Made by a program: the position numbers and the translations under genes
Notes under the pieces: generated by a model
Databases searched by the model: none
Told to the model about the DNA's origin: nothing
Seen by the model: only the letters and a program-made list of their open reading frames with translations
Shown here: in pieces, positions 990 to 18,656 of the stretch
Layout: each line of letters starts with the position of its first letter
Numbering within the stretch: position 1 is the first letter of the stretch
NCBI GenBank assembly: GCA_003599795.1
Contig: QZJQ01000003.1
Location: 1-62,521 of the forward strand
From: Nitrospiraceae bacterium
GTDB taxonomy: Bacteria > Nitrospirota > Thermodesulfovibrionia > Thermodesulfovibrionales > UBA1546
DNA length: 62,521 bases
Direction: 5' to 3'

Positions 990-1002
990 AGTAATAGCCC
1001 CT

Positions 1003-1560
1003 TTATTTGATATCCGATGGTTTCATGGGAGGTTTTTCGGGTTCAAGCTGTTTAAATCTCGGTTGATGCGGGTCGTGGCAAGTTACACACATGCGATAAA
1101 CCTTTTCTCCGTCCCACATCCCTGTCAGCCTGCCATGAATTCCAACTTTCCAGTCTTTGTATACAGTCCCATGGCACTGTTTGCAGAGGACGTACGGCTT
1201 GTCATAATCGATCAACTGCCCGCTCGGCAGTTTTAATTTGTCTCCTTCGTGACAGTCTAAACACCACCTGTCTTCCGCATGCTTAAGCGTTATATTGGAG
1301 TGGCTTGCTGTCAGCTTTCTCTTTGTTTTATTCACCGAAAGATACTTGTGGCATTTGGAACATGGATAATTTTCAGAGGTTCTTGGCTTGGTTATAATTA
1401 GCTTGGGGACTCCCTCTTCTTTGGGGACTCCTTCTTGTGCTCCGCTTGAATGAAGGGAAACCATTCCACCAAAAAATACTACCGAGAAAATTACGGCTAA
1501 TTTACCCATTATCTTCATAATTACAGACTCCCATTTAAGAATTTTCATTAATATATACAA
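1003..1560 (-). CDS. periplasmic tetrahaem c-type cytochrome
   Basis: 185-aa ORF with hydrophobic signal-like N-terminus and four CxxCH motifs (CSKCH, CLDCH, CKQCH, CVTCH); true start probably an internal Met (MKIMGKL). Confidence 0.8.
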   Translation of the reverse strand: MYILMKILKWESVIMKIMGKLAVIFSVVFFGGMVSLHSSGAQEGVPKEEGVPKLIITKPRTSENYPCSKCHKYLSVNKTKRKLTASHSNITLKHAEDRWCLDCHEGDKLKLPSGQLIDYDKPYVLCKQCHGTVYKDWKVGIHGRLTGMWDGEKVYRMCVTCHDPHQPRFKQLEPEKPPMKPSDIK

Positions 1561-3136: not shown

Positions 3137-3177
3137 CTATACCTCTTTCAATTTCCGTGCCATAATCCTACTATATA

Positions 3178-4671: not shown

Positions 4672-4680
4672 CTGTTGGGC

Positions 4681-5589
4681 TTAGCGTGGTATTTTTACGC
4701 CTTCTTTAATCAAATAATCTACAATCGCTCTTATGGGATTATAATCAGAATCCTCTGCTTCAGCAAAGCCGTATTTGAACTCCTCATCCCATTGCTCCAT
4801 AATCTTGCGGTGCTCCGGATTATTGTAGTTTAAAGACAGGAGCGCTTTTTTTATTGCATTTACTATCTCCGGAGACAGATCCGCCCTTACCACCACCGGC
4901 AAGCCCGGAATAGGGTCGGAAAAAGCTATTATTTTAAGCCCTCTGTTTTCAAACCTGTTTGCAACAGCGTCTATAACTGCCCCTGCATCAAAGTTCCCTC
5001 GCAGAATTTCCCTTGCAACAGAATCGTGATATTTCAAGTTAACATGCTTTGAAAGGTCTCTCAAGGTTATTCCCCCTTTTGCATAGAGTTCATTAAGCGG
5101 GACAAGGTATCCGGAGGTTGACCTTTCAGACGCAAAGGCCACTGATTTCCCTTTCAGGTCAGAAAGTTTAGTTATTTTCTTATTATCTGCCCTTGCAATA
5201 AATACGCTCCTGTAATACGGCTTACCGTCATGCCCTAATGGTTTAAGTATAGGCACAAGATTAAACTGCTCTTTTGCCTCAAGATACGTTGCGCCGCCAA
5301 GCAAGGCAACCTGAACATCGTTGTTTTTGAGGAAATTTATTATGTTCCTGTAATCCTGGCTTAACTTTAATTCAAACTTGTACGGCGTATTTTTTGTAAG
5401 ATAGTCCATAAGCGGCTGGTATCTCTGGTACATTACGATAGGATGATAAAGGGTTATGGCGCTGAAATAAATAACCTCTTTTGAGGATACTTTACCTTTT
5501 TCGCTGCAAACTGCTGGTTGGGCATAAAGACTTACGGCTACAAACAGAGATATAAAGACATATCTCAACTTCATTCTCAATGATACCAT
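4681..5589 (-). CDS. PhnD-like (phosphate/phosphonate-type) periplasmic substrate-binding protein
   Basis: 302-aa ORF with signal peptide; SBP fold signatures (VALLGGATY, ERSTSGYLVP); upstream of the sensor kinase in the same operon direction. Confidence 0.65.
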   Translation of the reverse strand: MVSLRMKLRYVFISLFVAVSLYAQPAVCSEKGKVSSKEVIYFSAITLYHPIVMYQRYQPLMDYLTKNTPYKFELKLSQDYRNIINFLKNNDVQVALLGGATYLEAKEQFNLVPILKPLGHDGKPYYRSVFIARADNKKITKLSDLKGKSVAFASERSTSGYLVPLNELYAKGGITLRDLSKHVNLKYHDSVAREILRGNFDAGAVIDAVANRFENRGLKIIAFSDPIPGLPVVVRADLSPEIVNAIKKALLSLNYNNPEHRKIMEQWDEEFKYGFAEAEDSDYNPIRAIVDYLIKEGVKIPR

Positions 5590-5598
5590 TTTAATCTC

Positions 5599-6972
5599 CT
5601 AAAATTCATACCGCATCTGGAAATACACATTATCATTCTTATCCAGCTGCCCGAACTGGCTCCACCTCTCGCCTTCGCCGAAGATGTTCGCTCCGACTGC
5701 AGCCCAGATATGGTCTGAGAAATTATATTTAACTTCGGGGTTCAGCATGTAATCTCCGTCAGACGTGCTGTAGAAGGAGAAGAATGAAAGCTTTAACGTC
5801 TGGTGCATGAGCATCTGCGTTAATCTTATGGTTGCAAGCTGATAGAGCTTTCTGTCCTTTGGAAGTCCCCCGGGCTGATTCTTTTTATACTCAGAATAAT
5901 CATGCATATATTCGCTAAGAAACTGCACCCCTACTGTGAAATCCTCCCATAACTGCCTCTGATACCCGATAAGAAATTTTGTCTGCGAATTCGGGACAGT
6001 ATAATCCGTTCCTGAGCTGTCTTGCCTTGAGTCATAATATCCCCCTTCAAGACTCAGAACACCGTCCAAGGCCCTTCCCTGAAGGCTCGCGCCGTAAACA
6101 GAGAGCTTGGGATAATGATATGTAATCTTTGTAGTGCTATTTATATCGTCAGGTATCATATAAGGCTTGCGGTAGAATCCCCTGTATAAATATACCGACG
6201 CATCAAACCCTGCAACATCCCTGTAAGCCCTTAATGCAAATTCTGTGTTCTTAAAATTCGTAGCAGGGTCTGTTTCTTCCCTGTTCGTAACGCCCGGCAT
6301 GGGGTCGAACATATAGAATCTTCTTGCATCGGTATAGTTATTAGGCTCAAATATCGGTATGGCAATGAATTCAAATGAGGCAAATTCCGGATAGGCCCCA
6401 ATCTTTACCCCGTCAGCTCCCTTTTTCATATACTCCAGCGGCCTTCCTGAAAAGAACGCCTCATAGTCTTTCGGAAATACATCATTTATAAATATCAGGT
6501 CTCCAATCCCCCATGTAATTATCTGCCTGCCTGCCCTTATATCCCATTTCTTTTCAACATGGTCAATATAGCCTTCCCTTAACTCTATCTGTGCCTTCTC
6601 ATCAATATGGTCATAAAAGGCGTCTGTTTTCAGGAATAACCTGAACGGCTCCTTTGAGGCGTCAAGCTTTAACTGCAATCTCTCCTCAGCCCATTTAAAA
6701 TCTCCTCCGTCAGGGTTAGCCCTTGTGCCAAAAGAATAATTCCCTTGAAAGAAGCCGTGAATAGAGACATCGGCTGCGTATGAAGGGAAAATACAAGCGC
6801 AGCAGAGCAGTAGCGCAGTAGAACAGTAGCGCAGTAGAACAGTAGCGCAGTAGAACAGTAGCGCAGTAGAACAGGTGATTTGTTTGCCTGTTGCTCTGCT
6901 GCTTTGTTGCGCTGTTGCGCTGTTGCTCTGCTGCTCCGCTGTTCTGTTGCTCTGCTTTTTCACTCTATCCAC
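5599..6972 (-). CDS. outer-membrane beta-barrel protein (DUF1302/porin-like); N-terminus encoded by a tandem-repeat element
   Basis: 457-aa ORF ending in aromatic YEF; alternating beta-strand pattern; adjacent to a LolA-like protein. The first ~55 codons are low-complexity repeat translation. Confidence 0.6.
   Translation of the reverse strand: MDRVKKQSNRTAEQQSNSATAQQSSRATGKQITCSTALLFYCATVLLRYCSTALLLCCACIFPSYAADVSIHGFFQGNYSFGTRANPDGGDFKWAEERLQLKLDASKEPFRLFLKTDAFYDHIDEKAQIELREGYIDHVEKKWDIRAGRQIITWGIGDLIFINDVFPKDYEAFFSGRPLEYMKKGADGVKIGAYPEFASFEFIAIPIFEPNNYTDARRFYMFDPMPGVTNREETDPATNFKNTEFALRAYRDVAGFDASVYLYRGFYRKPYMIPDDINSTTKITYHYPKLSVYGASLQGRALDGVLSLEGGYYDSRQDSSGTDYTVPNSQTKFLIGYQRQLWEDFTVGVQFLSEYMHDYSEYKKNQPGGLPKDRKLYQLATIRLTQMLMHQTLKLSFFSFYSTSDGDYMLNPEVKYNFSDHIWAAVGANIFGEGERWSQFGQLDKNDNVYFQMRYEF
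6797..6955. repeat. STRR-like tandem octamer repeat element (two arrays flanking a spacer)
   Basis: Left array (GCGCAGTA/GAACAGTA)n at 6797-6874, spacer GGTGATTTGTTTGC, right array (CTGTTGCK/CTGCTGCT)n at 6888-6955. Confidence 0.85.
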
Positions 6973-7748
6973 TTCTTCGGCGGCTGCTTGAGAAACCGCT
7001 CTGAAAACAGGCTGTCCTCAATGCCAACGTTGTAATCAATCTTCGTATATGCAACCTCTGTCCTGTGCCCGCTCAGAAGATTTTTCATGGTCCTTTTTGT
7101 GATTGTTGAAAAGCCCTTTACATCCTTAATCTCATCAGCGGAGAATACCCTGCTAAGCTCTCCTTTTTTGTCATAATATTCTTCCTTAAGCGGCAGAAAA
7201 TTGACTTTATCAACCCATGAGAGTTTATGAGCGTAATCAACATCACCCTTCTTAGGGGTACTTTTTACTACATAACAATCCCTTGCTCCGAGTTTTTCTT
7301 CTTTCACCATTGTATGCGTATCGTCCTGAATATCCCTGCCGGAAACATCCTCATATGTGAAATCAGAGCCAACAAAGCTTGAGGTCTTATCCTGCGCCGC
7401 AATCCTCCTGACCATGTTTATTGCAGGAACAAAAAGCCATCTGTCGTCGTCCTTTGCAGGATATTTATAGACCATGAAGGTCATGTCCTTAACATCAGCA
7501 GGCTGAAAGAAATACATAAAGAACCTCTGGTCGCCGCCGGCCTCCCCGAAGTTCTTCCTGAGCATGCTGAGCTCCCTTACCCTTTCCGCACCGCCTTTGC
7601 TTATGAGCTTCATCATTACCCGTGCCTTAAAGTCCTTGCCCTGATAGTGAAAAGCAGCCTGAGACTTTTTCATCACATCTTCAGCGCTTATTGCCAGCGC
7701 TTCAATAGGCAGAAGCATAACCAATAAAACAAGCAAATATCTCATCAT
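6960..7748 (-). CDS. outer-membrane lipoprotein-sorting (LolA-like) family protein
   Basis: 262-aa secreted ORF; family resemblance (FMYFFQPADVKDMTFM, DRWLFVPA, SFVGSDFTYEDV). Confidence 0.7.
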   Translation of the reverse strand: MMRYLLVLLVMLLPIEALAISAEDVMKKSQAAFHYQGKDFKARVMMKLISKGGAERVRELSMLRKNFGEAGGDQRFFMYFFQPADVKDMTFMVYKYPAKDDDRWLFVPAINMVRRIAAQDKTSSFVGSDFTYEDVSGRDIQDDTHTMVKEEKLGARDCYVVKSTPKKGDVDYAHKLSWVDKVNFLPLKEEYYDKKGELSRVFSADEIKDVKGFSTITKRTMKNLLSGHRTEVAYTKIDYNVGIEDSLFSERFLKQPPKKWIE

Positions 7749-7766: not shown

Positions 7767-7824
7767 CAGTGTCAGTTTTTAGTGACAGTGTCAGTAGCTG
7801 ACACTAATCACTTGCACTGTCACT
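7767..7824. repeat. STRR-like heptamer element with nested inverted repeats (terminator-like)
   Basis: AGTGACAGTG...CACTGTCACT (10-bp arms) enclosing GTGTCAG-TAG-CTGACAC; units of CAGTGTC/CTGACAC type; lies just downstream of the DUF2892 stop. Confidence 0.7.
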
Positions 7825-8011
7825 TATTTTTATCTATTCCCATGGCCCTGAGAATCGGCATCGTAGGGCACCAGTTTGTAAAAGCCGACTGCAAAAGATT
7901 CAGTCCCATAAAGGCAGTCAGTATCAGCCAATTGGGAGAATGAATCTGCGCCAAGCCAAGACTGACCAGGACAACTAAACCTGCCATGCCTCTTAATATT
8001 CTTTCCATCAT
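7820..8011 (-). CDS. DUF2892 (YgaP C-terminal-like) small membrane protein
   Basis: 63-aa ORF, two TM helices, conserved NWCP motif; overlaps the stop of the YeeE/YedE gene. Confidence 0.75.
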   Translation of the reverse strand: MMERILRGMAGLVVLVSLGLAQIHSPNWLILTAFMGLNLLQSAFTNWCPTMPILRAMGIDKNK

Positions 8012-9399
8012 TTTACACCTCCTGCATTTTCTTCGTGAAGTCCCTTTAAGAATATCTCATCTGTGGATTTTGTTATATATTCTTTTGGGGTTACCTTTGT
8101 AATCTGCGAACCCTTTTTTATGGCCCATATAAGAAGGGCTATGAGCATTGCGCTATAGAGAATTGCAAAACCATATTGTATATATGGATTGTCAGGCAGG
8201 AGTTCAAGCATATTCTTTTCCTTCATAAAACCCCTTGAGAAGAAGAACTCGTCTATCCTGTCCTGATACAATGAATACGGGAGATATCCGAGCATAAAGC
8301 CGGGCAGCGCCGTCAGCCCTGTAAGATATGCCATGCCCAGCCTTGAATAGGTCCTTATCTCACATCCTAACATGAGAACACTTCCAATCCCAAGCAATGG
8401 CCCTCCAATCAAATGCCCAAGATGAAATCCCCACTTATATCTTCCTGCCTCAACAACTACAGGCACATCCCACCCTAAGGCTATCCATGTGAAAAGTATT
8501 GTGAGGTTAAACATTATTATTGCAACAAGAAGCCCGGCAAAGGGCATCATCCCTGTAAACATGGTCTGCGTAATCTTTGCAACCTTCATTGCTTCAAAGT
8601 GCTTTGGTTTCATCAGAAGGGACTTTGGAGACATGACAGCGCACTCGGTCCCAAAGCCGGATTTGGCAATGCCAAAGCCTACAAGAAATCCGACAAGCCC
8701 TTTGAGAAAAATCTCAAACCACGGCAGTCCGCCAATGCTGTTCGCCGATTCTCCTTTAACCGCTGTCCAGAAAACTGAGGCAATCAACAAAAGAAAAAAC
8801 GCGGTAAAAATAAGCCGCACAGGGTCTTTGTAAGGCTTATGTTCAGGGTCATAGCTCAATGTCTCCGTATTGTATTCAAGCTCAAGACATTGATGGACTG
8901 TTGCCTTTACCTCATGGTGTTTCATGAATCCTCCGGCATTCATCTTTGCCATTAACATAAAGGCAAGATATGCAAAAGGAATGCTTACAATCGCTACAAC
9001 GATAGAGGTAAGGCTCATGCCCGGTATTCCTCCGAGATAATGCCATGCCGTGCATCCTTGAGCGAGCCTTGTGCCGAAACCAAAGATTATGCCTCCGATA
9101 AAGGCAAGTATAGCAACACGCAAAGGATATTTCACCCATGTTTTGCGTTCGCGCTCTATAAGCGCTACAGAACAGCCGCCGATAATTATTCCCATTACTA
9201 CCCAGTGGATATCAGCGCTGTAGGTCCTTGCGATAAAATCTGTCTTTGTAATATTTTCCTCAAGGGTGGCAAACATTTTTGCGAGTCCTGTTGTTATCGG
9301 TATCGGTGTGTCATACTTAAGGAAATACAATACCTCTGCAAGCCCGACCAGAAAGCCTCCCCAGATAAATGACCATGGTTTTGTAAGAATATTCCTCAT
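8008..9399 (-). CDS. YeeE/YedE family sulfur (thiosulfate) or selenium transporter, duplicated-domain form
   Basis: Polytopic membrane ORF with conserved Cys loops (LAQGCTAW, GTECAV, LGCEIRT). Start placed at Met 9399, preceded by GGTGGAGAA; the track ORF extends to 9444. Confidence 0.8.
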   Translation of the reverse strand: MRNILTKPWSFIWGGFLVGLAEVLYFLKYDTPIPITTGLAKMFATLEENITKTDFIARTYSADIHWVVMGIIIGGCSVALIERERKTWVKYPLRVAILAFIGGIIFGFGTRLAQGCTAWHYLGGIPGMSLTSIVVAIVSIPFAYLAFMLMAKMNAGGFMKHHEVKATVHQCLELEYNTETLSYDPEHKPYKDPVRLIFTAFFLLLIASVFWTAVKGESANSIGGLPWFEIFLKGLVGFLVGFGIAKSGFGTECAVMSPKSLLMKPKHFEAMKVAKITQTMFTGMMPFAGLLVAIIMFNLTILFTWIALGWDVPVVVEAGRYKWGFHLGHLIGGPLLGIGSVLMLGCEIRTYSRLGMAYLTGLTALPGFMLGYLPYSLYQDRIDEFFFSRGFMKEKNMLELLPDNPYIQYGFAILYSAMLIALLIWAIKKGSQITKVTPKEYITKSTDEIFLKGLHEENAGGVK

Positions 9400-9403
9400 C
9401 AGA

Positions 9404-9901
9404 TTACTTCTCCACCGGATAGTTTTTTGTTGCTGCCTTCTCAATTGCCTTTTTCATAGCCTCGCCGCCGCGATAATTTTTAATCCACGCTGCATGCCCG
9501 AAAGCCATCGTATATGCATCATAGCCAAGCACCCTCAGCGATACAACTGGAAGATTCTGCACCTGCCCCGTAACGCATACGAGAATTATCTTTTTGTCCT
9601 TTGGAAGTTTTCCAAGGTTTTCGGGCTTCAGAATCTCGTTATAGGATATGTGTATCGCCCCCGGAATATGACCTGCTTTGTATTCGCCTGGATTAGGCCT
9701 TACATCCACAACCAAGAAGTCTGTCTGCTTGGTCTTTATCCACATATAAACCTCGTCTGCAGTTACCTGCCAGTGTCCTTCTTCCAATCCCTTCATCAAC
9801 ACATCACTCATTTTTTTTGCAATGTCATCCTGCGCAAAAACAGGCACAGCCAGAGAAACAACAATAATAGCTATCATCAAATGCATCCCAATCTTTTTCA
9901 C
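9404..9901 (-). CDS. periplasmic rhodanese-domain sulfurtransferase
   Basis: 165-aa ORF, signal peptide ...VPVFAQDD; rhodanese motifs VVDVRP..GHIPGAIHI and active-site loop CVTGQ. Confidence 0.85.
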   Translation of the reverse strand: MKKIGMHLMIAIIVVSLAVPVFAQDDIAKKMSDVLMKGLEEGHWQVTADEVYMWIKTKQTDFLVVDVRPNPGEYKAGHIPGAIHISYNEILKPENLGKLPKDKKIILVCVTGQVQNLPVVSLRVLGYDAYTMAFGHAAWIKNYRGGEAMKKAIEKAATKNYPVEK

Positions 9902-9914
9902 CTTTTCTTCCTCC

Positions 9915-9954
9915 TAACTTTTAACTTGTAACTTTTAACTTGTAACTTTACTAA
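9915..9954. repeat. STRR-like heptamer array (TAACTTT/TAACTTG)x5 ending in TTTACTAA
   Basis: Five tandem heptamers read directly, followed by TCAGGGGTCACGCCCCCGAG; intergenic between the rhodanese start and the upstream gene stop. Confidence 0.85.
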
Positions 9955-9984
9955 TCAGGGGTCACGCCCCCGAGTGATTTAGTC

Positions 9985-10383
9985 TCAGCCTATCCCGCTT
10001 CTGAAATCCTTCACATCCTTAAGCACTTTTTTAAGTTTTACGCCCAGCTGTTCTGCTATAGCCTGCCACCCCTTTCCTGATTTCCTCATTGTTACAATGT
10101 CCTTATAAGGTTTCTTTGAGAGATTGGATATAACAATTATCGTAACCGCCTCTCCCGGTGAAAACTCCTTAAGCAGGGCCCCGATTGTTTCGGGCTTTTG
10201 AGTTTCAAAAAAATACGCCTTAGTCTTCTTCTCAAACATTTTGAGATTTCTTGACTGGCGTTCATTAATCTTTTTTATCACCTTATCCAGTTCTTCAGGC
10301 TCTGAAAGCCTGCCTGAAAAAGCAGTCATAGGCAATAAAAATGTAAATACGAGAAACAGGGTTAACACTCTTCTTGCAAACAT
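9985..10383 (-). CDS. hypothetical secreted protein
   Basis: 132-aa ORF with signal peptide, start overlaps the RND gene stop; no recognisable motif. Confidence 0.5.
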   Translation of the reverse strand: MFARRVLTLFLVFTFLLPMTAFSGRLSEPEELDKVIKKINERQSRNLKMFEKKTKAYFFETQKPETIGALLKEFSPGEAVTIIVISNLSKKPYKDIVTMRKSGKGWQAIAEQLGVKLKKVLKDVKDFRSGIG

Positions 10384-12728
10384 TATTTCACGCCTCCTTT
10401 AAACAGCCAGCCCTGCAATAAGACAATCAGGGCCGGGATATATATTATTGTCATCACTGCGCTCAGCAGCATCATGCTCACAATGAACGCTCCTACGGTG
10501 ATATAAGGCGTCAGCGGCGCAAAGAGCATAACAGAGAATGCCGACGCAAAAAGAACTGCATTGCGCATTATCCCCTTGCCGGGCCTTGCGGCAGTCCATA
10601 ATAAAGAATCAGTTATGAGTTCAGAGTTTGGAGTTTTAAGTTGTTCTGAACCTTTAACTTTTAACTCTAAACTTTCAACTAATCTTTGTTTAAACCTGCT
10701 TATGAAGTGAATTGCAAAGTCAACCGCCATGCCTAAAGATAACGTGGAAAGGACAGATATCGGCATGTCAAAGTCCTTGCCCATGAATCCGATTACGCCG
10801 TAGATGAGAATAACGGTGAACACAAGAGGGATATATCCCACAAAGGCCCACCTGAACGAATGGAAGTTAAAGCGCAGGATTACAAACACCACGATGAGCG
10901 CGATGGTGAAACCTGTGACCATATCCCACAGGACTTCCTCATTCCATACAAGGTTGAAATATGCCGTGCCCGCCGGTTTCAGGTTCATTGGCATGGGGTT
11001 CGCTTTTTTATATTCATTGACTGCGGCAATAACATCGCGCATTGCCTGAGCGTCCCATGTCTTGAGCTGCAGCCATATATTTGCCTTCGCAGCCTGATAG
11101 TCAATTACATTGTCCAGATCGGCAGGCTTTGCGGACATGCTGAACAAAAAAAGATACTGCCCGATTGCCGCTTTTGAATCCGGGATAGAGTCGTATTTTG
11201 GATCATCGTCATGGAGCACGAGGTTTATCCTCTTGACATAATCCACAACAGATGTGGTTTTCCCTACAACAGAAAGTTTTTCTATATGCCTTTGAAGCCC
11301 GTCTATGTATCGCATGGCTTCCGGTGTTTTTATGAAATTTTCTTCCTGAGCAGTTGCCACAATATAGCCAAGCGATGTGCCACCGAGGGCTTTGTTCATA
11401 ACGCTGTCGGCGACCCTGATGTCGCTCTTCTCCTTAAACCAATCCACCATATTGTTATTCACCACGGTCTTGCTTATGCCGAAGACGGCTATTACAAAAA
11501 GCACAACACCGGCAAAGACAACAGTTTTGGACTTATGCGCGCCGAGATGTGCAAGGCTTTTCAGGAATTGCGATGTCTTGCTTGAAGAAACATCTTCACC
11601 TTCGGAAGCTTTATCTAACTTTTCCTCTTTTACGAACATAAACATCGCAGGGATAAAGCTGAAGCTTAAAACCCTTAACATCACGGTCCCGAACGCAATA
11701 AGCCCGCCAAAGACCTTGACAGGGATAATGTTCATGAATAAAAGCACGGCAAAGCCTGCTGCGGTTGCCAGCGCCGTGTATCGCACAGGACGGCCTACAG
11801 CGTGCATCGTCTCAATTATCGCAGCCTTTTTGTCTCTCTTTTCTTTATAGCGGAAGTAAAACTCATTAAAAATGTGTATGCTGTCCGTAGCTATGGCCAT
11901 CAAAAACACAGGAGCCATGGAGCTCATTATGTGAATAGGGAATCCGAGCGCTATAAGCAGGCCCATGCTCCAGACAATGCTCATCATGGCATCCATCATC
12001 AGCGCAACAGAGAGAAAGAGATCTCTGAACATAAAATATCTGACAACAAGCATGACCATTCCTGCAATCGGGGCGAATATTGCCATGAGTTTGAACATGT
12101 CGGCGCCAAAGGTATCCCTTGCTACAGGGTCGCCTGCTATGTAGTATTTCTCATCGCCTTTTTCTTTCTTTACTGCCTCTCTGATTTTGTCTGCCACTTC
12201 TTTGCCGTTTGCGCCCTTTTCAAGCGGGACATATATGGCAGTGGTCTTCCCGTCTTTAGAGATAATCCGGTTAATAAACAGAGAATTTTCAAACAGCATT
12301 TTTCTTAAATGCTCAACCTCTTTATCTGTTTTAGGAACTTCGGTCATAAGAGGGGCTACCCTCAGCATTCCCTTTTCTGCCGTAACATTTGTGATGGTCG
12401 GAAAGCTGTTTACATCCCTTGCTGCAACGCCCTTGATCTTCAGTATCTCGTCTGTTATTCTCTGGACTTTGCCAAGCGTTTCTTTATTCAGAACACTTTT
12501 TTCGTTCACTATCCCTAAAACTATCATGTCCTCATAGAGCGCAAATGTCTTGTCAACTTCATCATTCCATACCCTTACATCGGATGTATCGGGGAGCATG
12601 TGTTTGGGATTAGTGTCTGTCTTCATCTTCGGAAACTGTGTCATGAAGGCAAGCGTAACGATTATTGAAAGGATCACGACCAGCTTTGGATGATTGACAG
12701 AAAACTCAACAAGTGAAAACTTTCGCAT
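10383..12728 (-). CDS. RND-superfamily exporter (MMPL/HpnN-like)
   Basis: 781-aa ORF with 12-TM, two-large-loop architecture typical of MMPL-type RND pumps. Confidence 0.8.
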   Translation of the reverse strand: MRKFSLVEFSVNHPKLVVILSIIVTLAFMTQFPKMKTDTNPKHMLPDTSDVRVWNDEVDKTFALYEDMIVLGIVNEKSVLNKETLGKVQRITDEILKIKGVAARDVNSFPTITNVTAEKGMLRVAPLMTEVPKTDKEVEHLRKMLFENSLFINRIISKDGKTTAIYVPLEKGANGKEVADKIREAVKKEKGDEKYYIAGDPVARDTFGADMFKLMAIFAPIAGMVMLVVRYFMFRDLFLSVALMMDAMMSIVWSMGLLIALGFPIHIMSSMAPVFLMAIATDSIHIFNEFYFRYKEKRDKKAAIIETMHAVGRPVRYTALATAAGFAVLLFMNIIPVKVFGGLIAFGTVMLRVLSFSFIPAMFMFVKEEKLDKASEGEDVSSSKTSQFLKSLAHLGAHKSKTVVFAGVVLFVIAVFGISKTVVNNNMVDWFKEKSDIRVADSVMNKALGGTSLGYIVATAQEENFIKTPEAMRYIDGLQRHIEKLSVVGKTTSVVDYVKRINLVLHDDDPKYDSIPDSKAAIGQYLFLFSMSAKPADLDNVIDYQAAKANIWLQLKTWDAQAMRDVIAAVNEYKKANPMPMNLKPAGTAYFNLVWNEEVLWDMVTGFTIALIVVFVILRFNFHSFRWAFVGYIPLVFTVILIYGVIGFMGKDFDMPISVLSTLSLGMAVDFAIHFISRFKQRLVESLELKVKGSEQLKTPNSELITDSLLWTAARPGKGIMRNAVLFASAFSVMLFAPLTPYITVGAFIVSMMLLSAVMTIIYIPALIVLLQGWLFKGGVK
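10624..10682. repeat. STRR-like heptamer element inserted in frame in the RND gene
   Basis: GAGTTTG GAGTTTT AAGTTGT - TCTGAACC - TTTAACT TTTAACT CTAAACT TTCAACT; translated as LVESLELKVKGSEQLKTPNSE within the ORF. Confidence 0.8.
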
Positions 12729-12786
12729 AATTCCTCCTCATGTGACTTTCAAATATTCTAAAGTCTGCAATTGCTAAATAAAAAAA

Positions 12787-13116
12787 TTATTTAGCGCCTG
12801 TAAATTTCTTTGCCATCTCCTGCCCCTCTGCAAGCCGTTCAAGCAATACTTCCCTCATGAGACTGCATGCTTTGATCACCTTAGAATTTGACACTCTATA
12901 ATAGATATTACTTCCTTCTCTTCTCGCTGTAAGTATTCCCTTCTGCCTCATAACTGCAAGATGCTGTGATACATTTGCAGCGGATATCCCGAGCGTGCCG
13001 GCAAGCTCCCCGACAGTTAATTCCTTGCTGTTTAGCGCATTAAGGATTTCTATCCTTTTAGCGTTGCCTAATGTCTTACATATCTCGGCATGAATCTCAT
13101 AAAGTTTTTTATTCAT
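12787..13116 (-). CDS. ArsR/SmtB-family transcriptional regulator
   Basis: 109-aa winged-helix protein (LGNAKRIEILNAL, ELAGTLGISAANVSQHL). Confidence 0.9.
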   Translation of the reverse strand: MNKKLYEIHAEICKTLGNAKRIEILNALNSKELTVGELAGTLGISAANVSQHLAVMRQKGILTARREGSNIYYRVSNSKVIKACSLMREVLLERLAEGQEMAKKFTGAK

Positions 13117-13138
13117 AATCTCCTCCGCAACAGGAAAA

Positions 13139-13459
13139 TCAAAATGTCACAACTCTATCGCTCTCCTTTACGATTGCATGCATATCCTTCATCGTAGATA
13201 AAGGGCAGATGTCGCTTGCAGCGGTATTCCTGATCTTAAGGCATGTCCCGCACGCAAATATTTTGCCTCCGCCGGAAACAAAATCCTTCATCTGCTGCGT
13301 AACTAAAAATTTTTCAGTATCAATGGATTCTGCCTCAACACCTTTCCCCGTCAAAAAAACCTTAACTTCATCGCCTTCCTTTATGGCAAAATTGCCGTAT
13401 CTGAATGCATTCCACACGGTCTCCGGATCATTTGAGTAAATAATAATTCCTATTTTCAT
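13139..13459 (-). CDS. DsrE/DsrF-like family protein (small, CGTC motif)
   Basis: 106-aa ORF MKIGIIIYSNDPE...FACGTCLK, typical stand-alone DsrE-family fold. Confidence 0.75.
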   Translation of the reverse strand: MKIGIIIYSNDPETVWNAFRYGNFAIKEGDEVKVFLTGKGVEAESIDTEKFLVTQQMKDFVSGGGKIFACGTCLKIRNTAASDICPLSTMKDMHAIVKESDRVVTF

Positions 13460-13511
13460 ATAGCCTCCTGTCTGTTAGATATACTGCCGTATAAAAAATT
13501 TACATATAACA

Positions 13512-13934
13512 TTAAAAAGTCAGGTTCATATCCGCCTGAACTACGACCTCTTTGTAATACGTTCCCGGATTGGCGAGTTCAACACCCTCGACAAAATCAG
13601 CCTTTGCCATGCCAAAAAGAGGAACATTGAGCGGGCATGCAAGCATTTGAGCGCCCTCTTTATACAGCATGAAGAGCAGTTCCTCGGCTGTGGGCAGTTC
13701 CATCTCTTCCATCCTTTTCATCACCGCATCCCCAGTCTCTTTCGGCTGGTCCGGCAGGCATTTCAGTTCTTTAACCTTGTCCTTATGGATCGCATTCACC
13801 CCGCGCGAACCGAAGAAAAGCGTGACCTTGGAGCCTTCCCTTAGCAGGCTCAATGCCGTCATGAGTGCATTGTAGACCTGGCAGAGCTCGTCGTGAAAAC
13901 ACATGATAGATACATTCTTAGTTATTTTTGCCAT
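13512..13934 (-). CDS. DsrE2/DrsE-like (peroxiredoxin-like) sulfur-carrier family protein
   Basis: 140-aa ORF; family resemblance (VSIMCFHD..., LFFGSRGV, MLACPLN). Confidence 0.65.
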   Translation of the reverse strand: MAKITKNVSIMCFHDELCQVYNALMTALSLLREGSKVTLFFGSRGVNAIHKDKVKELKCLPDQPKETGDAVMKRMEEMELPTAEELLFMLYKEGAQMLACPLNVPLFGMAKADFVEGVELANPGTYYKEVVVQADMNLTF

Positions 13935-13962
13935 CTTGCACCTCCGGTTTATATGCCCGATT

Positions 13963-15150
13963 TTAAGGCAGATTTGTCAAGCCGTGTTTTATCTTCCATA
14001 AGAAATATTTCTCAAATGCGATTTTGCCCCATTTATAAACGATGCCCTCTTTGAGCGCAGACTCCTGCCTTGGCGGAAGCAAGGGCTTTGCCCTCATCAA
14101 TGAAGCAGTATTCCCCATGTCCATAAGGCACAGGACATCCATCTCATAAGACGCCGGCGCAGGGCTTCCTGAAATCTCTGCGGCTATGCTGTAAGCGGCG
14201 GCCTTTGCCATCTTCACTGTCATAAAGCCTGTCTTTGGAACACCTGTCGGGATTACTGTTTGTTCAAGGGGAGCAATTGCAACTGCAACGCCGATTGTAA
14301 AAATATTCCTGTGCTTCTTGTGTCTCATATTGTCGTCAACAGGAATGAATCCCCTCGGATTTCCGAGATGCGCTACAGCAGGAACGCCTTTCATTGCAGG
14401 CGCAAACATTGCAAGTTTATGCGGTATCTTTGAGCCGTCCTTAAGCCTCGCCTCGCCGGGCACAAATTCTTCAACAGCAGTGTTTGTTATAACCTTTATG
14501 TCCCGCTTTGCAAATTCATCCTCCATTATTCTCTTTGAGTTTCTAAGCCCTCCGATGCCAAAATGCCCGATGTAAGGCTCTGAAGTCACAAAAACAATCG
14601 GAGCCTTATTCCTTATTTTTCTTTTGCGAAGTTCCGCGTCTGTCTCAAATGCGTATTCATACGCGGGCCCAAAGCAACTGACACCCTGAACAGCGCCAGT
14701 AATAATTGCGCCCGGATTTTCGAGGAATCTATTCCATGCCTTATTGGCCATTTCCGCTTGGTCAAGTGTAAAAATGCATTCGGTATTTCCTTTGTAAGGA
14801 CCAAGCCCCGGCACTTCTTCAAAGGCAAGATGGGGGCCTGTCGAGATTACAAGGTAGTCATAATGAATTTCATGCGTTCCCGTGATGACCTTAGAGGCAT
14901 CCGCGTCAATGCCTTTTGCTTCTCCGTGAATAAATGTTATGCCTTTTCTTTCAAGCATCGGCTTCAGCGGAGCAGTTATATCTTCTGCTTTTCTCCAGCC
15001 CATTGCAAGCCATGGAAGCGACGGTATAAATACAAACTTATCCATATCACTCAGGAGCGTTATGTCTGCTGTTTTGCCAAGAAGCCGTTTAAGTTCAAAA
15101 GCTGCTGTGAGGCCTCCGAATGAACCGCCCAGAACAACTATTTTTGACAT
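13963..15150 (-). CDS. sqr: sulfide:quinone oxidoreductase-type FAD-dependent pyridine nucleotide-disulfide oxidoreductase
   Basis: 395-aa ORF; N-terminal Rossmann IVVLGGSFGG; length and context (DsrE-family, rhodanese) match SQR-type flavoproteins. Confidence 0.75.
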   Translation of the reverse strand: MSKIVVLGGSFGGLTAAFELKRLLGKTADITLLSDMDKFVFIPSLPWLAMGWRKAEDITAPLKPMLERKGITFIHGEAKGIDADASKVITGTHEIHYDYLVISTGPHLAFEEVPGLGPYKGNTECIFTLDQAEMANKAWNRFLENPGAIITGAVQGVSCFGPAYEYAFETDAELRKRKIRNKAPIVFVTSEPYIGHFGIGGLRNSKRIMEDEFAKRDIKVITNTAVEEFVPGEARLKDGSKIPHKLAMFAPAMKGVPAVAHLGNPRGFIPVDDNMRHKKHRNIFTIGVAVAIAPLEQTVIPTGVPKTGFMTVKMAKAAAYSIAAEISGSPAPASYEMDVLCLMDMGNTASLMRAKPLLPPRQESALKEGIVYKWGKIAFEKYFLWKIKHGLTNLP

Positions 15151-15164
15151 GTTACCCTCCCCCT

Positions 15165-15446
15165 TTAAAACATTCCTGCTACTTTATCGTTATCAGCCAT
15201 AAGGTCCACAAGGCTGTCATAGCCTGTTTCCCTTATGCCCTTTCTTATCTCGGCGTCTTTGATTCCTCTTAATTTCAAGTCCTCTTTAAGAGCGTATGTA
15301 TTACCGCAAAAACCTTCAAGCCTTTCCCCCTGCGCAAAATAAACACCGTTCTGTATTAAGAAAAGGTCAGCAGCCATATCCTGAGCAAGCTTCACTCCTC
15401 TTTTCCCATCTGCTGTGTCAGGCCCGCTTTTAACTATTACAAGCAT
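15165..15446 (-). CDS. dsrH: DsrH/TusB-like sulfur relay protein
   Basis: 93-aa ORF MLVIVKSGP...LIQNGVYFA; last gene of an E-F-H triplet. Confidence 0.75.
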   Translation of the reverse strand: MLVIVKSGPDTADGKRGVKLAQDMAADLFLIQNGVYFAQGERLEGFCGNTYALKEDLKLRGIKDAEIRKGIRETGYDSLVDLMADNDKVAGMF

Positions 15447-15465
15447 ATTAACCTCCCGTTTTTTA

Positions 15466-15555
15466 GAGCAGTAGTGCAGCAGAGCAACAGAACAGCAGTT
15501 AAATATTTTTCTCCTAACTTCTGCTCTTCTGGGCTACTGCTTTGCCGCTCTGTTC
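15466..15555. repeat. STRR-like repeat element, intergenic between the dsrF-like and dsrH-like genes
   Basis: GCAGTAGT GCAGCAGA GCAACAGA ACAGCAG - AT-rich spacer - CTGCTCTT CTGGGCTA CTGCTTTG CCGCTCTG; the arms are partly complementary. Confidence 0.8.
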
Positions 15556-15909
15556 TTAAAAAATCATCGTTGTTTTTGCTTCTTTGACTGTTTCCGCTAT
15601 CTCTGCGCCGGCAACAATCTTAACGCCGTCAACCACATCTCCTGTCTCCACTTGCAGCTCTGTTAGTGAACCCTTATCCGCATAAACTTCGACTCCCATA
15701 TCAATACAATCCTTCAATGCCCCTTCCAGATTTGTAAACCCGGTTCCTGCATCATCCTGCCCTTTTCTGGCAAGCAGAACGCCGCCGTCAACCAAAAGAA
15801 GACTAACGGCAAGTTCATCTGCCGCACCGCCCATTGCATGTCTTACAGCCTCTGCTGCATTTATATCGCCATACGGCGCTTTCCTGAGTATCATTGCAAT
15901 TTTTGACAT
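15556..15909 (-). CDS. dsrF: DsrF/TusC-like sulfur relay protein
   Basis: 117-aa ORF MSKIAMILRKAPYG...LLLVDGGVLLA. Confidence 0.75.
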   Translation of the reverse strand: MSKIAMILRKAPYGDINAAEAVRHAMGGAADELAVSLLLVDGGVLLARKGQDDAGTGFTNLEGALKDCIDMGVEVYADKGSLTELQVETGDVVDGVKIVAGAEIAETVKEAKTTMIF

Positions 15910-15931
15910 CGCTACCTCCTTTCAAATCAGG

Positions 15932-15985
15932 GCAGCAGCTTCAGAACTACTGCTCTGTTGCTCTATTGCTCTATGCTCTTCATGC
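15932..15985. repeat. STRR-like repeat array at the 3' end of the dsrE-like gene
   Basis: GCAGCAG CTTCAGA ACTACTG CTCTGTT GCTCTAT TGCTCTA TGCTCTT; same unit family as 15466-15555 and 6797-6955. Confidence 0.7.
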
Positions 15986-16336
15986 TCCGATGTTAAGCCA
16001 GACATCGCTATCCCCCATTGTCTTAAAAAGCCCCTTCAGAGAGCCAATCTCTGCGCCCTCCAGATAATCATCTTTCGCTGCACGGCGAAAATTCACGCAG
16101 CCGCCTCAGAGATAAACCTTCAGCCCTTTCTGTATCAGCCTTGAGAATTCCTCTTCTGCGTTTGCTATCCCCTTTGCTTTTTGCCTTTGCAGAAAACAAT
16201 AAACTCCGTCTCCTGAAGCGATGAGATTTACAGTATGCCCTTTTGTTAATGCAGACTCCGCAATCCGCACTGCAGTTACAGTGTTTTCATACGAATAAGG
16301 TGACGTTGATAAAAGCAGCGTAAATATTTTTCCCAT
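15980..16336 (-). CDS. dsrE: DsrE/TusD-like sulfur relay protein with in-frame TGA (candidate selenocysteine) at the active-site position
   Basis: Start ATG at 16336 with RBS GAAGGAGG. The track ORF stops at TGA 16106-16108, but the frame stays open for 41 more codons: ...LKVYL-U-GGCVNFRRAAKDDYLEGAEIGSLKGLFKTMGDSDVWLNIGA. U sits where DsrE/TusD has its persulfide Cys. An 8-bp hairpin (16077-16101) starts 4 nt after the TGA. Confidence 0.7.
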
Positions 16337-16348
16337 ATACCCTCCTTC

Positions 16349-16384
16349 ATATTCAAATATAATGATATTTGAATATATTGTCAA
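16349..16384 (-). promoter_or_regulatory. sigma-70-type promoter overlapped by a perfect 12-4-12 inverted repeat (candidate ArsR-family operator) upstream of the dsrE-like operon
   Basis: Minus strand: TTGACA (16379-16384), 17 nt, TATATT (16356-16361). Palindrome ATATTCAAATAT-AATG-ATATTTGAATAT at 16349-16376. Confidence 0.6.
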
Positions 16385-16407
16385 GAAAAATATTTCCCCT
16401 CTATGGT

Positions 16408-17187
16408 TCAGAAAATATCAACCCAGACTTTTATTGCGGTGCCGGATATTATCAGCGCAAGCAGCCATCTTAAAAACCTGGTGTTTGTTTTTTTGCCTGC
16501 GATTGCGCCTAATCTCGCTGTTGGAATTGCGCCAGCAAGAAGCGCTATAGACATAAAGAAAGGCACCTGCCCTGTTGCGGCCTTGCCTATTAAGCCTGCG
16601 GATGCTGAAAACAGCCCGATGGCAAGCGTGCTTCCAAGGGCAACCCTCAAAGGAATCTTCAGCACGTATAAGAGTATCGGTATTGTTATAAAGGCCCCTC
16701 CCTGTCCCACAAGGCCTATTAAAAAACCGATGAAGATTCCAATGAGGATAGCTGCCGGTTTATTGAAAACAACATTCTCTTCCGTAAGCTCATCGCGCTC
16801 ATAATTCCTTGGCATAAGCATCATTGCCGCAGCAATAAGAGCAAGCGCGGCAAAGATAAAGAGTATCGGCTTGTCAGGGACCAGTTTTGATATAAGGGCG
16901 CCTGAAAGCGAGGATGCAAACAGCGAGGAGCCGAGCGTTAACACAAGCGGTTTATTGACGAGCCTGTTTTCGTGGTAATAGAACATTGCTGAAAGAGATG
17001 CAAAAAAACCCTGCATCATCGTAAGGCCTGTAATGCTTTTAACATCTATCTCTTGAAACCCCAGCAGGGGAGGCGCATAAAACAAGAGCGGAAACATTAT
17101 TATTCCGCCCCCTAATCCAAGGAGGCCTGAAAGAAATCCGACTCAAGCGCCGGCAAGAAAAAGGAAAATAAGGAATGTGAACGGCAT
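16408..17187 (-). CDS. TauE/SafE (DUF81) family anion permease with in-frame TGA near the N-terminus (candidate selenocysteine or readthrough)
   Basis: ATG at 17187 lies 1 nt after the selD stop (TAAAATG). It reads MPFTFLIFLFLAGA-U(17143-17145)-VGFLSGLLGLGGGIIMFPLL, restoring the family-typical first TM and GxxGxGGG motif that the 229-aa track ORF lacks. Hairpin GCCUCC-UUGGAUUA-GGGGGC at 17107-17126. Confidence 0.6.
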
Positions 17188-17188
17188 T

Positions 17189-18235
17189 TTATTTCTCTAC
17201 ATGTATTCTTTTATCGCCGCCAAGAGGTTTATCAATAACATCTCCGATATAAGCTGCTATTATTTTTTCTTTTTGAAGAGCGCTTATCAGCCTGCCTTTT
17301 TTTTCTGCCGGCACGAATATGAGCAGACCGCCTGATGTCTGGGCGTCGTTCATTAAAATCTTCTCCACTTCTTTAACTCCCTTGCCCCAGGTTACGTATG
17401 ATTCGTAATTTTTGACATTGGTCTTTGTCCCTCCCGGAACAATACCGGCATCGGCAAGCCTTATTGCGTCATCAAAATACGGCACGCTACCTGAATAAAT
17501 ACGCGCACTGCACTTGCTTGCAGAAAGGACTTCATGAAGATGCCCTATAAGGCCGAAGCCTGTTATGTCTGTTGCTGTGCTTACGCCGGTTTCAAGCATA
17601 ATCTCGCTGGCCCTTTTATTCAATGCTGTCATTGAGGCCGTGAATTCCTCAATGATAGGACTGCTGCATTTGTCTGCTTTCACGCCTGTGGAAATAATGC
17701 CGGTGCCTATCTTTTTTGTCAGTATAAGCGCATCTCCGGCACGGGCTTTTGAATTATCAAGAATCTTTGCCGGATGTATCACGCCCATAACGGCAAAGCC
17801 GAATTTCGGCTCTTTATCTCTGATGGTGTGGCCTCCTATGATAGAAACCCCGGCCTCGGACATCTTGTCTATGCCGCCCTTCATAATCTGTTTAAGCAAA
17901 GGGAAAAATTCAGGCTGATTCGGGAAGAGGGCGACATTCAAGGCAACAAGCGGCTTTGCTCCCATTGCGTATACATCCGAGAGCGCGTTTGCAGCAGCTA
18001 TAGCGCCGAACCAGTAAGGGTCGTCAACTATCGGCGTAAAGAAATCAGTTGTAAGAACAACCGCGACATCATCCGTAATGCGGTAAACCCCTGCGTCATC
18101 TGAATTGGCATGGCCAACCAGAACATTCGGGTCTGTTATGTCAGGCAGCTGCCCCAGCACGTGGGACAGGTCCGAAGGACTGAACTTTGCAGCTCAACCC
18201 GCGCAGCTTGAAAGGTTTGTCAGTTTGATGTCCAT
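17189..18235 (-). CDS. selD: selenide, water dikinase (selenophosphate synthetase), selenocysteine-containing form
   Basis: The track ORF lacks the N-terminus. Extension from ATG 18235 gives MDIKLTNLSSCAG-U-AAKFSPSDLSHVLGQLP, with TGA at 18194-18196 aligned to the Cys of the SelD GAGCGCK motif. Hairpin CAGUC-CUUCG-GAC(C)UG at 18167-18182 starts 11 nt after the TGA. The rest of the ORF is SelD/AIR-synthase-like. Confidence 0.85.
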
Positions 18236-18253
18236 CCTATCCTCTCCGTAAAG

Positions 18254-18595
18254 TTAATGTTTTCTTGTACCGGGATATTTCCCTTTTTTGGTGACCGGAC
18301 AACACGCAGGAGCAGGCAACTCCTTTATGTAATCCTTTTTCAGAATCTTTATTATGTCAGGAATTATCGGATCCCTGAGAAAATAACACTTGAGCCTGCC
18401 GTCCATGTAATAGTCAATCGCTCCGTATCGCCTGAGGAGCGAAAGGTGCTGCGATACATTAGGCTGGCTTATGCCAAGAAATCCTTCAATATCACTGACA
18501 CATTTCACGCCCTTCATAAGCTCTTCAAGTATTTTAATCCTTGCCGGATGGCCTATCGCCCTGAGGAGTTCAGCTCTTTTATCCAGTGAACGCAT
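18254..18595 (-). CDS. ArsR/SmtB-family transcriptional regulator with Cys-rich C-terminal tail
   Basis: 113-aa wHTH (HPARIKILEEL, FLGISQPNVSQHL); tail PAPACCPVTKKG. Confidence 0.9.
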   Translation of the reverse strand: MRSLDKRAELLRAIGHPARIKILEELMKGVKCVSDIEGFLGISQPNVSQHLSLLRRYGAIDYYMDGRLKCYFLRDPIIPDIIKILKKDYIKELPAPACCPVTKKGKYPGTRKH

Positions 18596-18628: not shown

Positions 18629-18656
18629 ATATTAAAGTATTGGAATATATTGTCAA
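18629..18656 (-). promoter_or_regulatory. sigma-70-type promoter of the arsR-selD-tauE unit, sharing a 15-mer with the dsrE-operon promoter
   Basis: Minus strand: TTGACA (18651-18656), 16 nt, TAATAT (18629-18634). CTTGACAATATATTC is identical to the sequence at 16371-16385. Confidence 0.5.

Follow-up and report, generated by a model that had tools for sequence, protein, structure and literature searches.

We analyzed a sulfur gene cluster in a 62,521-nt stretch of DNA from a Nitrospiraceae bacterium (GCA_003599795.1, contig QZJQ01000003.1, positions 1-62,521, forward strand; the whole stretch is hereafter called the window) and found that it encodes an obligately selenocysteine (Sec)-dependent relay of the DsrEFH type that is hard-wired to a sulfide:quinone oxidoreductase (SQR). 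DsrEFH, SQR and the UxxC DsrE-like family are all known already; what is new is this Sec-dependent form and its fixed link to SQR. We hold, with moderate confidence, that the cluster is a conserved chromosomal operon of Thermodesulfovibrionia-type Nitrospirota in which a thiol sensor controls sulfide oxidation together with a sulfane-sulfur relay that uses Sec as its nucleophile. The open reading frame (ORF) listing of the window places 15 genes head to tail on the minus strand, from 18595 down to 7820, with spacers that range from gene overlap up to 109 nt and with no change of strand throughout. Three of these genes, selD, tauE and dsrE, encode selenoproteins within 2.3 kb. An initial annotation made from the DNA letters had proposed this gene order and strand, the in-frame UGA codons of all three genes and the absence of dsrAB, dsrC and tusA. 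ORF calls and Pfam or NCBIfam profile matches to the window proteins backed every family it had named, all three codons were located, and profile searches of the whole window found no dsrAB, dsrC or tusA.

The UGA codon of dsrE reads VYL-UGA-GGC, and the frame stays open for 41 codons more. For comparison, we gathered 80 species-representative loci by DsrF alignment (L numbers below), all but two of which carry Nitrospirota-type labels, and searched them by tblastn with all window proteins. The site is TGA in 77/77 readable copies, the motif UxxC is invariant, and the reading frame past the TGA is conserved among the aligned copies; four copies at only 41-45% identity are still TGA, reading VDI-U-TGC. 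In the main group of copies, a hairpin of the form UUUCGC-CGUGCR-GCGAAA (UUUCGC-CGUGCA-GCGAAA in the window) lies 19-36 nt 3′ of the UGA. The Arg-Arg-Ala-Ala codons of this hairpin are frozen at synonymous sites (CGC in 73/73, CGU in 68/73 and GCG in 70/73), and the Gly codons just upstream of it occur in all four synonymous forms. In the divergent group, an equally spaced hairpin is built from another sequence, UCCGCG-GUCU-UGCGGA. Because the Rfam families for the Sec insertion sequence (SECIS) gave no match at the gathering threshold, nor with E values allowed up to 10, the case for a SECIS element is a comparative one. When folded as a single sequence, the dsrE region did no better than shuffled sequence (z = +1.0), and the hairpin emerged clearly only from the 77 aligned copies.

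When aligned with A. vinosum DsrE and E. coli TusD, Sec77 falls in the invariant column of the catalytic Cys78. This column also holds the first Cys of CGTC, the all-Cys counterpart of UGGC, in the 106-aa paralogue encoded in the same cluster. Two DsrE homologues in the Cys form (P0198 and P0229) read VYLCGGC at 51-54% identity, and P0229 is also seen in an E-F-H trio. Taken together, the TGA conservation, the hairpin, the alignment at Cys78 and the Cys-form homologues place DsrE(U), as we call the Sec form, firmly among the DsrE-like selenoproteins of the UxxC family and indicate that it is, as judged from sequence, an obligate selenoprotein in ∼80 genomes. Selenoproteins of this family have been listed since 2005 (PMC1088965, PMC1794560; PMC13188914), as list entries only. 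The window protein shares with the family of Zhang and Gladyshev the PF02635 domain, Sec in a UxxC motif, a SECIS directly downstream and the existence of Cys homologues, but in the window it goes beyond a list entry, as subunit E of an E-F-H trio that shares a fixed operon with SQR. Our literature search found no UxxC DsrE-like selenoprotein that had been treated as a DsrEFH E subunit or linked to SQR, ArsR or an RND pump. In a single locus (L015, 4446-4480), a short deletion right after the dsrE UGA breaks the frame, a possible case of decay.

Synteny across the 80 loci is strong. Presence was counted only in loci with enough flanking sequence, hence the differing denominators. The core order is arsR, dsrE(U), dsrF, dsrH and sqr, often followed by a DsrE2-like gene, and then the genes for an HAE3/MMPL-type RND pump, a LolA-like protein and an outer-membrane barrel. 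The dsrE(U) gene stands directly upstream of dsrF in 76/76 loci, dsrH is present in 76 of 78, arsR1 lies within 3.2 kb in 59 of 64, and sqr is present in 56 of 65. The RND pump follows with 40/54, the DsrE2-like 140-aa gene with 31/60, the LolA-like gene with 30/44 and the barrel gene with 29/44. SelD (5/38), the TauE-family gene (11/38), the window-type YeeE (4/44) and the rhodanese are accessory (about 10-30% of loci); the genes for the small secreted protein, rhodanese, YeeE and DUF2892 co-occur as a foursome in six loci. Related sequence is found mainly in groundwater metagenomes. The gene-neighborhood check named in the initial annotation therefore came out in favor of a conserved block. 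As for the "island" at 7820-18595 that it had delimited, its genes stand, but its boundary does not, as the unit reaches beyond 7820 to ∼5599: the LolA-like and DUF1302-like genes go with the MMPL pump. Nor is it an island by composition. The GC content of the cluster (0.43-0.46) equals that of the housekeeping flanks and a position adjacent to guaA is common to relatives, and a horizontally acquired island was rejected on these grounds.

The trio consists of adjacent DsrE, DsrF and DsrH folds, as in DsrEFH type I of A. vinosum (2HY5) and TusBCD of E. coli (2D1P), and its DsrE nucleophile sits at the Cys78 column as theirs does. All three subunits matched Pfam above cut-off (DsrE(U) to DsrE with 66 bits, the DsrF-like subunit to DsrE with 54 bits and the DsrH-like subunit to DsrH with 41.5 bits). 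In PDB searches, the DsrF-like profile matched A. vinosum DsrF (2HY5_B, E 2.6e-12) and the DsrH-like profile matched TM0979 and A. vinosum DsrH (2HY5_C, E 2e-3), while neither matched TusC or TusB. Unlike type I DsrEFH and TusBCD, the window trio has Sec for Cys plus an added resolving Cys (UxxC), and it is tied to sqr, arsR and an RND pump, not to dsrABC or tusA/tusE. These differences bear on whether the trio is a TusBCD-type relay for tRNA 2-thiouridine synthesis, as would be expected from the name "tRNA 2-thiouridine synthesizing protein D" that some sources give to these proteins and from weak matches to the TusB, TusC and TusD models. We give this identity practically no chance and rejected it: the three subunits score below the curated cut-offs, the PDB matches are to DsrF and DsrH, no tusA, tusE or mnmA lies near the trio, and the linkage to sqr is constant. 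Neither of two outcomes that the initial annotation had named as refuting its view, a lack of conserved synteny and a trio grouping with TusBCD, was seen.

A further comparison is with the type II DsrEFH known from cable bacteria and sulfate reducers, which is likewise non-canonical and occurs in organisms with reductive-type dsrAB, Nitrospirota included (PMC13293266). The sulfur route proposed there for cable bacteria runs from SQR through YeeE, TusA and DsrEFH type II to DsrC. In the published description, by which we set type II apart from the window trio, Cys67 is conserved in 99.3% of sequences, the genes lie beside tusA and yeeE, the relay is not visible to sequence annotation, and selenocysteine is not mentioned (PMC13293266). 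The window trio, in contrast, has Sec77, stands without tusA, has YeeE nearby in a minority of loci and is recognized by Pfam in all three subunits. Because the functional Cys is present in 99.3% of type II sequences and Sec goes unmentioned, the Sec form is probably not in the type II set, and it may represent a third form of the DsrEFH relay alongside type II.

From end to end, the SQR can be aligned with two enzymes of solved structure, those of A. ferrooxidans and A. aeolicus (3T2Y and 3HYV, E 1e-99), and it keeps both catalytic motifs, the Cys160-type SCFGPAYEYA and the Cys356-type LCLMDMG; the flavoprotein that had been noted as SQR-type is thus, to go by its sequence, an ordinary type I SQR. 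We propose that the operon is under repression by ArsR1, which is lifted when the Cys residues of the regulator are modified by sulfane sulfur derived from sulfide or by another thiophilic effector. SQR would oxidize sulfide to enzyme-bound polysulfide and deliver the electrons to quinone, and Sec77 of DsrE(U)FH, being highly nucleophilic, would accept sulfane sulfur as a selenenyl-persulfide, the Se-S bond of which could be resolved by the neighboring Cys80. The trio would then hand the sulfur on, most plausibly to DsrC and a Dsr system whose genes lie elsewhere, or else to the small carriers of the DsrE type, and the module of RND pump, LolA-like protein and barrel might expel a hydrophobic product such as zero-valent sulfur. 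The lineage of the window would have gained two accessory modules. One, selD(U)-tauE(U), lies as an insertion between arsR1 and dsrE and would secure selenophosphate for the Sec enzyme and possibly also selenium uptake; the other, consisting of the secreted protein, periplasmic rhodanese, YeeE and DUF2892, may move periplasmic sulfane sulfur or thiosulfate. This scheme parallels the SQR-to-DsrC route of cable bacteria (PMC13293266) and the control of sulfur genes by ArsR-type sulfane-sulfur sensors (PMC12423496, PMC10451225).

The best sigma-70-like site in the region, TTGACA-17-TATATT (11/12; TTGACA at 16379-16384 and TATATT at 16356-16361), lies right before dsrE and is overlapped by a perfect 12-4-12 palindrome at 16349-16376, ATATTCAAATAT-N4-ATATTTGAATAT, for which 0 chance matches were expected and which we presume to be the ArsR operator. 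The second-best promoter site lies 5′ of arsR1 and bears a near-identical copy of the left half of this palindrome. In most other genomes, arsR1 is followed directly by dsrE and the promoter and palindrome stand 5′ of arsR1, in the design TTGACA followed by ATAT(G/T)CAAATAT-N4-5-ATATTTG(C/A)ATAT. The lineage of the window appears to have duplicated the promoter upon insertion of selD-tauE. A promoter/operator before dsrE and ArsR control of the unit had both been put forward in the initial annotation; the former is plain in the window, and the latter, still a prediction, gains from the recurrence of arsR1 and of a palindrome overlapping the promoter in most related loci.

ArsR-type sulfane-sulfur sensors are known to govern sulfur-oxidation genes (PMC12423496, PMC10451225, PMC7315123). 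Like BigR, SqrR and Hyphomicrobium sHdrR/SoxR, ArsR1 is a Cys-bearing ArsR/SmtB protein encoded beside sulfur-oxidation, TauE/DUF81 and YeeE-type genes, with a presumed palindromic operator overlapping a promoter. It differs from them in its Cys arrangement, with Cys32 at a CVC-type position, Cys70, and a C-terminal CC pair (Cys98 and Cys99, motif LPAPACCPVTKKG), and all four residues are kept in 52/52 orthologues. These positions are presumably other than those of the alpha2/alpha5 Cys pair of BigR. ArsR2, the second regulator, keeps Cys13 and Cys84 in 22/22 orthologues. Candidate effectors of ArsR1 are sulfane sulfur, metalloids and selenium species.

Several observations weigh against a sulfide-oxidizing relay under thiol-sensor control. 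The trio falls below the curated TusBCD/DsrEFH cut-offs (TIGR03012, 21.3 versus 89 bits; TIGR03010, 38.3 versus 94; TIGR03011, 42.2 versus 49). The best solved relative of DsrE(U) is YchN, a CxxC protein (E 0.0035), with A. vinosum DsrE marginal, and the UxxC motif, which is not found in classical DsrE or TusD, hints at reductase activity rather than sulfur carriage. Among the recurrent neighbors within 10 kb in the 80 loci there is no dsrC, dsrAB or tusA, and the sulfur acceptor is therefore a guess; the substrate of the RND module is pure inference. ArsR1 reaches 38 bits with the BigR model, the cut-off of which is 155 (ArsR2 reaches 56), and both regulators are well below the TsoR cut-off too. 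Moreover, the CVC-position Cys and C-terminal CC of ArsR1 resemble, as we take it, metalloid-binding ArsR proteins at least as much as BigR/SqrR. Finally, a search for RNA sequencing runs containing the window sequence found none, only groundwater and hot-spring DNA runs with ≤25% shared words.

The redox motif of DsrE(U) could also be read as that of a polysulfide or persulfide reductase, in a system that acquires or reduces zero-valent sulfur or polysulfide for disproportionation or respiration and in which the barrel, LolA-like protein and RND pump handle insoluble S8. The UxxC motif is invariant, YchN-type CxxC proteins are the closest family members by sequence, sulfur disproportionators occur in the host clade, and clusters of YeeE with DsrE-like genes have been discussed as disproportionation markers (PMC13293266). 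However, the most constant partner, SQR, oxidizes sulfide, and the only Dissulfurispiraceae-labeled metagenome-assembled genome of the 80 loci (L039) has no genes of the cluster besides dsrE(U)-dsrF. RND pumps, furthermore, work outward, and we regard sulfur reduction as distinctly unlikely.

The Cys pattern of ArsR1 raises the alternative of an operon for resistance to thiophilic metals or metalloids (As, Sb, Hg, Cd), in which ArsR1 would be the metalloid sensor, the Sec/Cys proteins would bind the element, perhaps as thio-species formed with SQR-derived sulfur, and the RND pump would export it. The four invariant Cys, with the C-terminal CC pair and the Cys at an ELCVCDL-type position, are in an arrangement that we believe to resemble As(III) sites. 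An RND exporter with outer-membrane partners belongs to the core, eight loci have an S-adenosylmethionine (SAM)-dependent methyltransferase gene after the barrel gene, and many transporter-linked selenoproteins have been tied to metalloid resistance (PMC13188914). Yet neither the window nor the other loci contain arsB/acr3, arsC, arsM-type or mer genes, the known substrates of HAE3 pumps are hydrophobic compounds and not ions (PMC6394551), and the constant enzymes are SQR and a DsrEFH-type relay. We consider metal(loid) resistance to be a doubtful reading.

The initial annotation had suggested a dedicated selenium, or mixed sulfur/selenium, route of delivery or detoxification. In such a route, TauE or YeeE would import selenium, SQR and DsrE(U)FH would pass selenide or perselenide to SelD or detoxify it, and ArsR1 would sense selenium. 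The idea draws on the three clustered selenoprotein genes, on the place of selD(U)-tauE(U) inside the operon in the window and its close relatives, and on ArsR-selD-tauE modules that have landed in or next to the cluster at at least three positions (L033, L036, L040, L048 and L075), with an ArsR1-type paralogue directly before selD-tauE in L048. In addition, no selenium-sensing regulator of bacteria has yet been characterized, a LysR-type one being only predicted (PMC5322559). Several results speak against it. SelD and TauE are present in only 5 and 11 of the 38 loci with full flanks, selD-tauE also occurs away from the cluster (L084 and L088), the SQR is an ordinary sulfide enzyme, and the constant partners of the relay are SQR and the RND export module instead. 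The YeeE-like protein, of a family for which the initial annotation had noted a link of YedE to selenium metabolism, fails the YedE/FdhT selenium model NF033796 (36.9 bits versus a cut-off of 350); it fails the TsuA thiosulfate transporter model as well (40.5 versus 400 bits) and passes only the general Sulf_transp Pfam model. Since Sec77 lies exactly at the catalytic Cys78, it represents a Cys-to-Sec replacement, the usual exchange, for which Cys forms are on hand in P0198, P0229 and L081, and is not evidence for selenium as cargo. Because selD, tauE and yeeE are accessory, the selenium route is weakened, and we now think it unlikely, if still worth bearing in mind.

Selenium might instead act as a gate on the sulfur machinery we favor. 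ArsR1 would then sense Se, Se-S species or sulfane sulfur and coregulate selD-tauE with DsrE(U)FH-SQR, in a sulfide-oxidizing, sulfur-exporting machine whose RND/LolA-like/barrel module exports S0 (or Se0). We judge this elaboration rather improbable; if it were true, a dedicated export system for hydrophobic zero-valent sulfur (or Se0) across the Gram-negative envelope would be known for the first time. The nearest described systems are the HAE3 RND pumps that expel apolar compounds with DUF1302 and DUF1329 partners, such as AmeABCD of Castellaniella defragrans (PMC6394551). The window module resembles them in its set of pump, LolA-superfamily protein and DUF1302-like outer-membrane protein. 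It differs from AmeABCD in that no AmeC-type gene (BNR/COG4447) is present with it, in its scores below cut-off (179 versus 352 bits for the HAE3 model of the pump; that for DUF1302 is in the table) and in its location inside a sulfur operon rather than a terpene island.

We further examined the selD-tauE pair. The UGA of selD, in the context SSCAG-UGA-AAKF, is the usual Sec form; the protein matched TIGR00476 with 371 bits (cut-off 125, U scored as C), and the codon is TGA in 8/8 orthologues examined. The UGA of tauE is codon 15, within the first transmembrane helix and upstream of the conserved family motif GFLSGLLGLGGG; the ATG lies one base past the selD stop (17185-17191), and no start codon occurs between the UGA and GFLSGLLGLGGG. 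The same TGA is found in five distinct sequences (the window, L003, L084/85, L086/87 and L088), across which the N-terminus MPFTF.IFLF..GA-U-VGFLSG is conserved. In more distant TauE orthologues, the residue at this position is Ser, Ala, Ile, Val, Leu or Phe and in no case Cys. These non-Cys residues, together with the absence of tauE from the close relatives L002 and L012, prompted us to consider that the codon is a pseudogene lesion. This was rejected: dN/dS between the window and L003 is 0.079 at dS 0.50, the same value as for neighboring genes, the N-terminus and frame are kept in five lineages, and so is the pairing of a 7-bp hairpin 3′ of the UGA, GGCCUCC-UUGGAUU-AGGRGGY. The changes seen in this hairpin, G to A opposite U and C to U opposite G, all leave its pairing intact, and it is more stable than its equivalent in orthologues without the UGA. 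Most simply, TauE(U) would be a recently evolved selenoprotein with Sec at a non-Cys position. Public gene calls for the TauE(U) clade are shortened at the N-terminus (229-244 aa). We found no description of TauE(U) in the papers searched, and both TauE and DUF81 are unnamed in a 2026 selenoproteome review.

Wherever selD and a TauE(U)-type tauE are both found they are adjacent; selD occurs alone in L002 and L012. The pairs were noted in L033, L036, L040, L048, L075 and L084-L089. Only in close relatives of the window do they lie between arsR1 and dsrE; elsewhere they follow sqr, dsrH or the barrel gene, or stand outside the cluster, beside a molybdopterin oxidoreductase gene (L084) or beside guaA (L088). 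Since selenite is a sulfite analogue, TauE is a candidate selenium transporter. TauE(U) would be a selenoprotein without prior description, and the conserved selD-tauE pair a new candidate for bacterial selenium transport. A second TauE type was seen in 15 loci.

The Sec codon of dsrE also affects how these genomes are scored. DsrEFH serves as a genomic marker that separates sulfur oxidizers from sulfate reducers. In public gene calls, dsrE stops at 76 aa, where the UGA lies, and its product goes by "DsrE family protein" or TusD (about 400 database proteins). In a survey of Nitrospirota from aquifers, published in 2024, most of the Thermodesulfovibrionia that carry reductive dsrAB were said to "possess dsrFH, but no dsrE" (PMC11033732). 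Because the public calls end at the UGA, this "missing" dsrE is probably an annotation artefact, as we infer. If the dsrFH of that survey are the genes described here, common groundwater bacteria would hold a complete Sec-dependent DsrEFH in an operon with SQR. Organisms at present classed as sulfate reducers would thereby have a concrete route by which to oxidize sulfide, and the Sec-dependent relay would tie selenium supply to aquifer sulfur cycling. The practical consequence lies in the scoring of sulfur metabolism in Nitrospirota genomes.

Table 1. Features of the cluster in the window, in order of transcription
Feature	Position	Strand	Basis and remarks
Promoter-like site 5′ of arsR1, TTGACA-16-TAATAT	18629..18656	-	With degenerate operator half-site cTTGACAATATATTCcAATAc
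ArsR1, ArsR/SmtB repressor, 113 aa	18254..18595	-	HTH_5 match
SelD, selenophosphate synthetase	17189..18235	-	TIGR00476; UGA 18194-18196; hairpin 18149-18169
TauE/SafE-family permease, 259 aa	16408..17187	-	PF01925, 149 bits; UGA 17143-17145; hairpin 17107-17126
dsrE promoter and 12-4-12 palindrome (presumed ArsR operator)	16349..16384	-	Promoter and palindrome searches
DsrE(U), 118 aa, Sec77 in VYLUGGC	15980..16336	-	Pfam DsrE; UGA 16106-16108; SECIS hairpin 16073-16090
DsrF-like subunit, 117 aa	15556..15909	-	Pfam DsrE
DsrH-like subunit, 93 aa	15165..15446	-	Pfam DsrH
Type I SQR, 395 aa	13963..15150	-	Begins 14 nt past dsrH
DsrE2-like protein (DrsE_2, PF13686), 140 aa, C-terminal motif ACPLN	13512..13934	-	Pfam
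Small DsrE-family protein, 106 aa, CGTC motif	13139..13459	-	Pfam DsrE
ArsR2, second ArsR/SmtB regulator, 109 aa	12787..13116	-	Pfam
MMPL/HAE3-type RND inner-membrane transporter, 781 aa	10383..12728	-	Profile match
Small secreted protein, 132 aa, without family match	9985..10383	-	ORF and synteny
Single-domain rhodanese with signal peptide (periplasmic), active-site loop CVTGQVQ	9404..9901	-	Pfam
YeeE/YedE-family (Sulf_transp) membrane protein, 463 aa	8008..9399	-	Cys in motifs AQGCT, GTECAV and LGCEI
DUF2892/YgaP-like transmembrane protein, 63 aa	7820..8011	-	Pfam
LolA-like periplasmic protein	6960..7748	-	PF17131, 211 bits; also DUF1329, 33 bits
DUF1302-like outer-membrane beta-barrel protein	5599..6972	-	DUF1302, 21.5 bits versus cut-off 23.2

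The remainder of the window is housekeeping (guaA, ispA, dxs, tol-pal, moaA, pgk, gap, polA, uvrA and tig). After the barrel gene, on the same strand (1691-5589), come genes for a PhnD-like periplasmic binding protein, a histidine kinase and a sigma-54 response regulator, an arrangement otherwise seen in L003 and L006 only; a search prompted by this regulator found no sigma-54 promoter in the cluster. At the left edge of the window (54-1560, minus strand) lie genes for a multihaem cytochrome c (NapC/NirT-like and c7-like matches) and a 4Fe-4S dicluster protein, which may be part of a membrane redox complex extending off the window.

Among the other loci, five have a second YeeE type upstream of dsrE. 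Occasional passengers are a thioredoxin-like protein (62-67 aa) encoded just before dsrE, multihaem cytochromes c and a DUF5714 protein. Examples of such recurrent accessory genes, the SAM methyltransferase gene after the barrel gene included, are in L021 (2429-3376), L071 (15889-16557), L031 (8411-9562) and L082 (1344-1532). In L086/L087, sqr is reduced to a 126-aa gene call (L086, 5788-6302) and L086 has a transposase-like gene slightly downstream, which could again reflect decay.

Repeats mark three junctions of the unit. Octamer tandem repeats of the GAGCAACA/GAGCAGCA type occupy the spacers on both sides of dsrF, at 15465-15498 and 15947-15979, in opposite orientation, and yield 29-nt arms that are 83% complementary. 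The dsrF-dsrH spacer also has a local 20-nt hairpin, and spacer lengths differ widely across genomes. At the junction of the LolA-like and barrel genes (6796-6954), two tandem arrays are found, a 16-nt unit repeated 4.9 times and an 8-nt unit repeated 9 times, the latter of the same octamer family as the spacer repeats. These arrays are read through as an odd N-terminus of the 457-aa barrel ORF, and because they occupy this stretch the true start of the barrel gene is uncertain. The spacer octamers could have a role in mRNA processing or stability, or could constitute a small repeat element.

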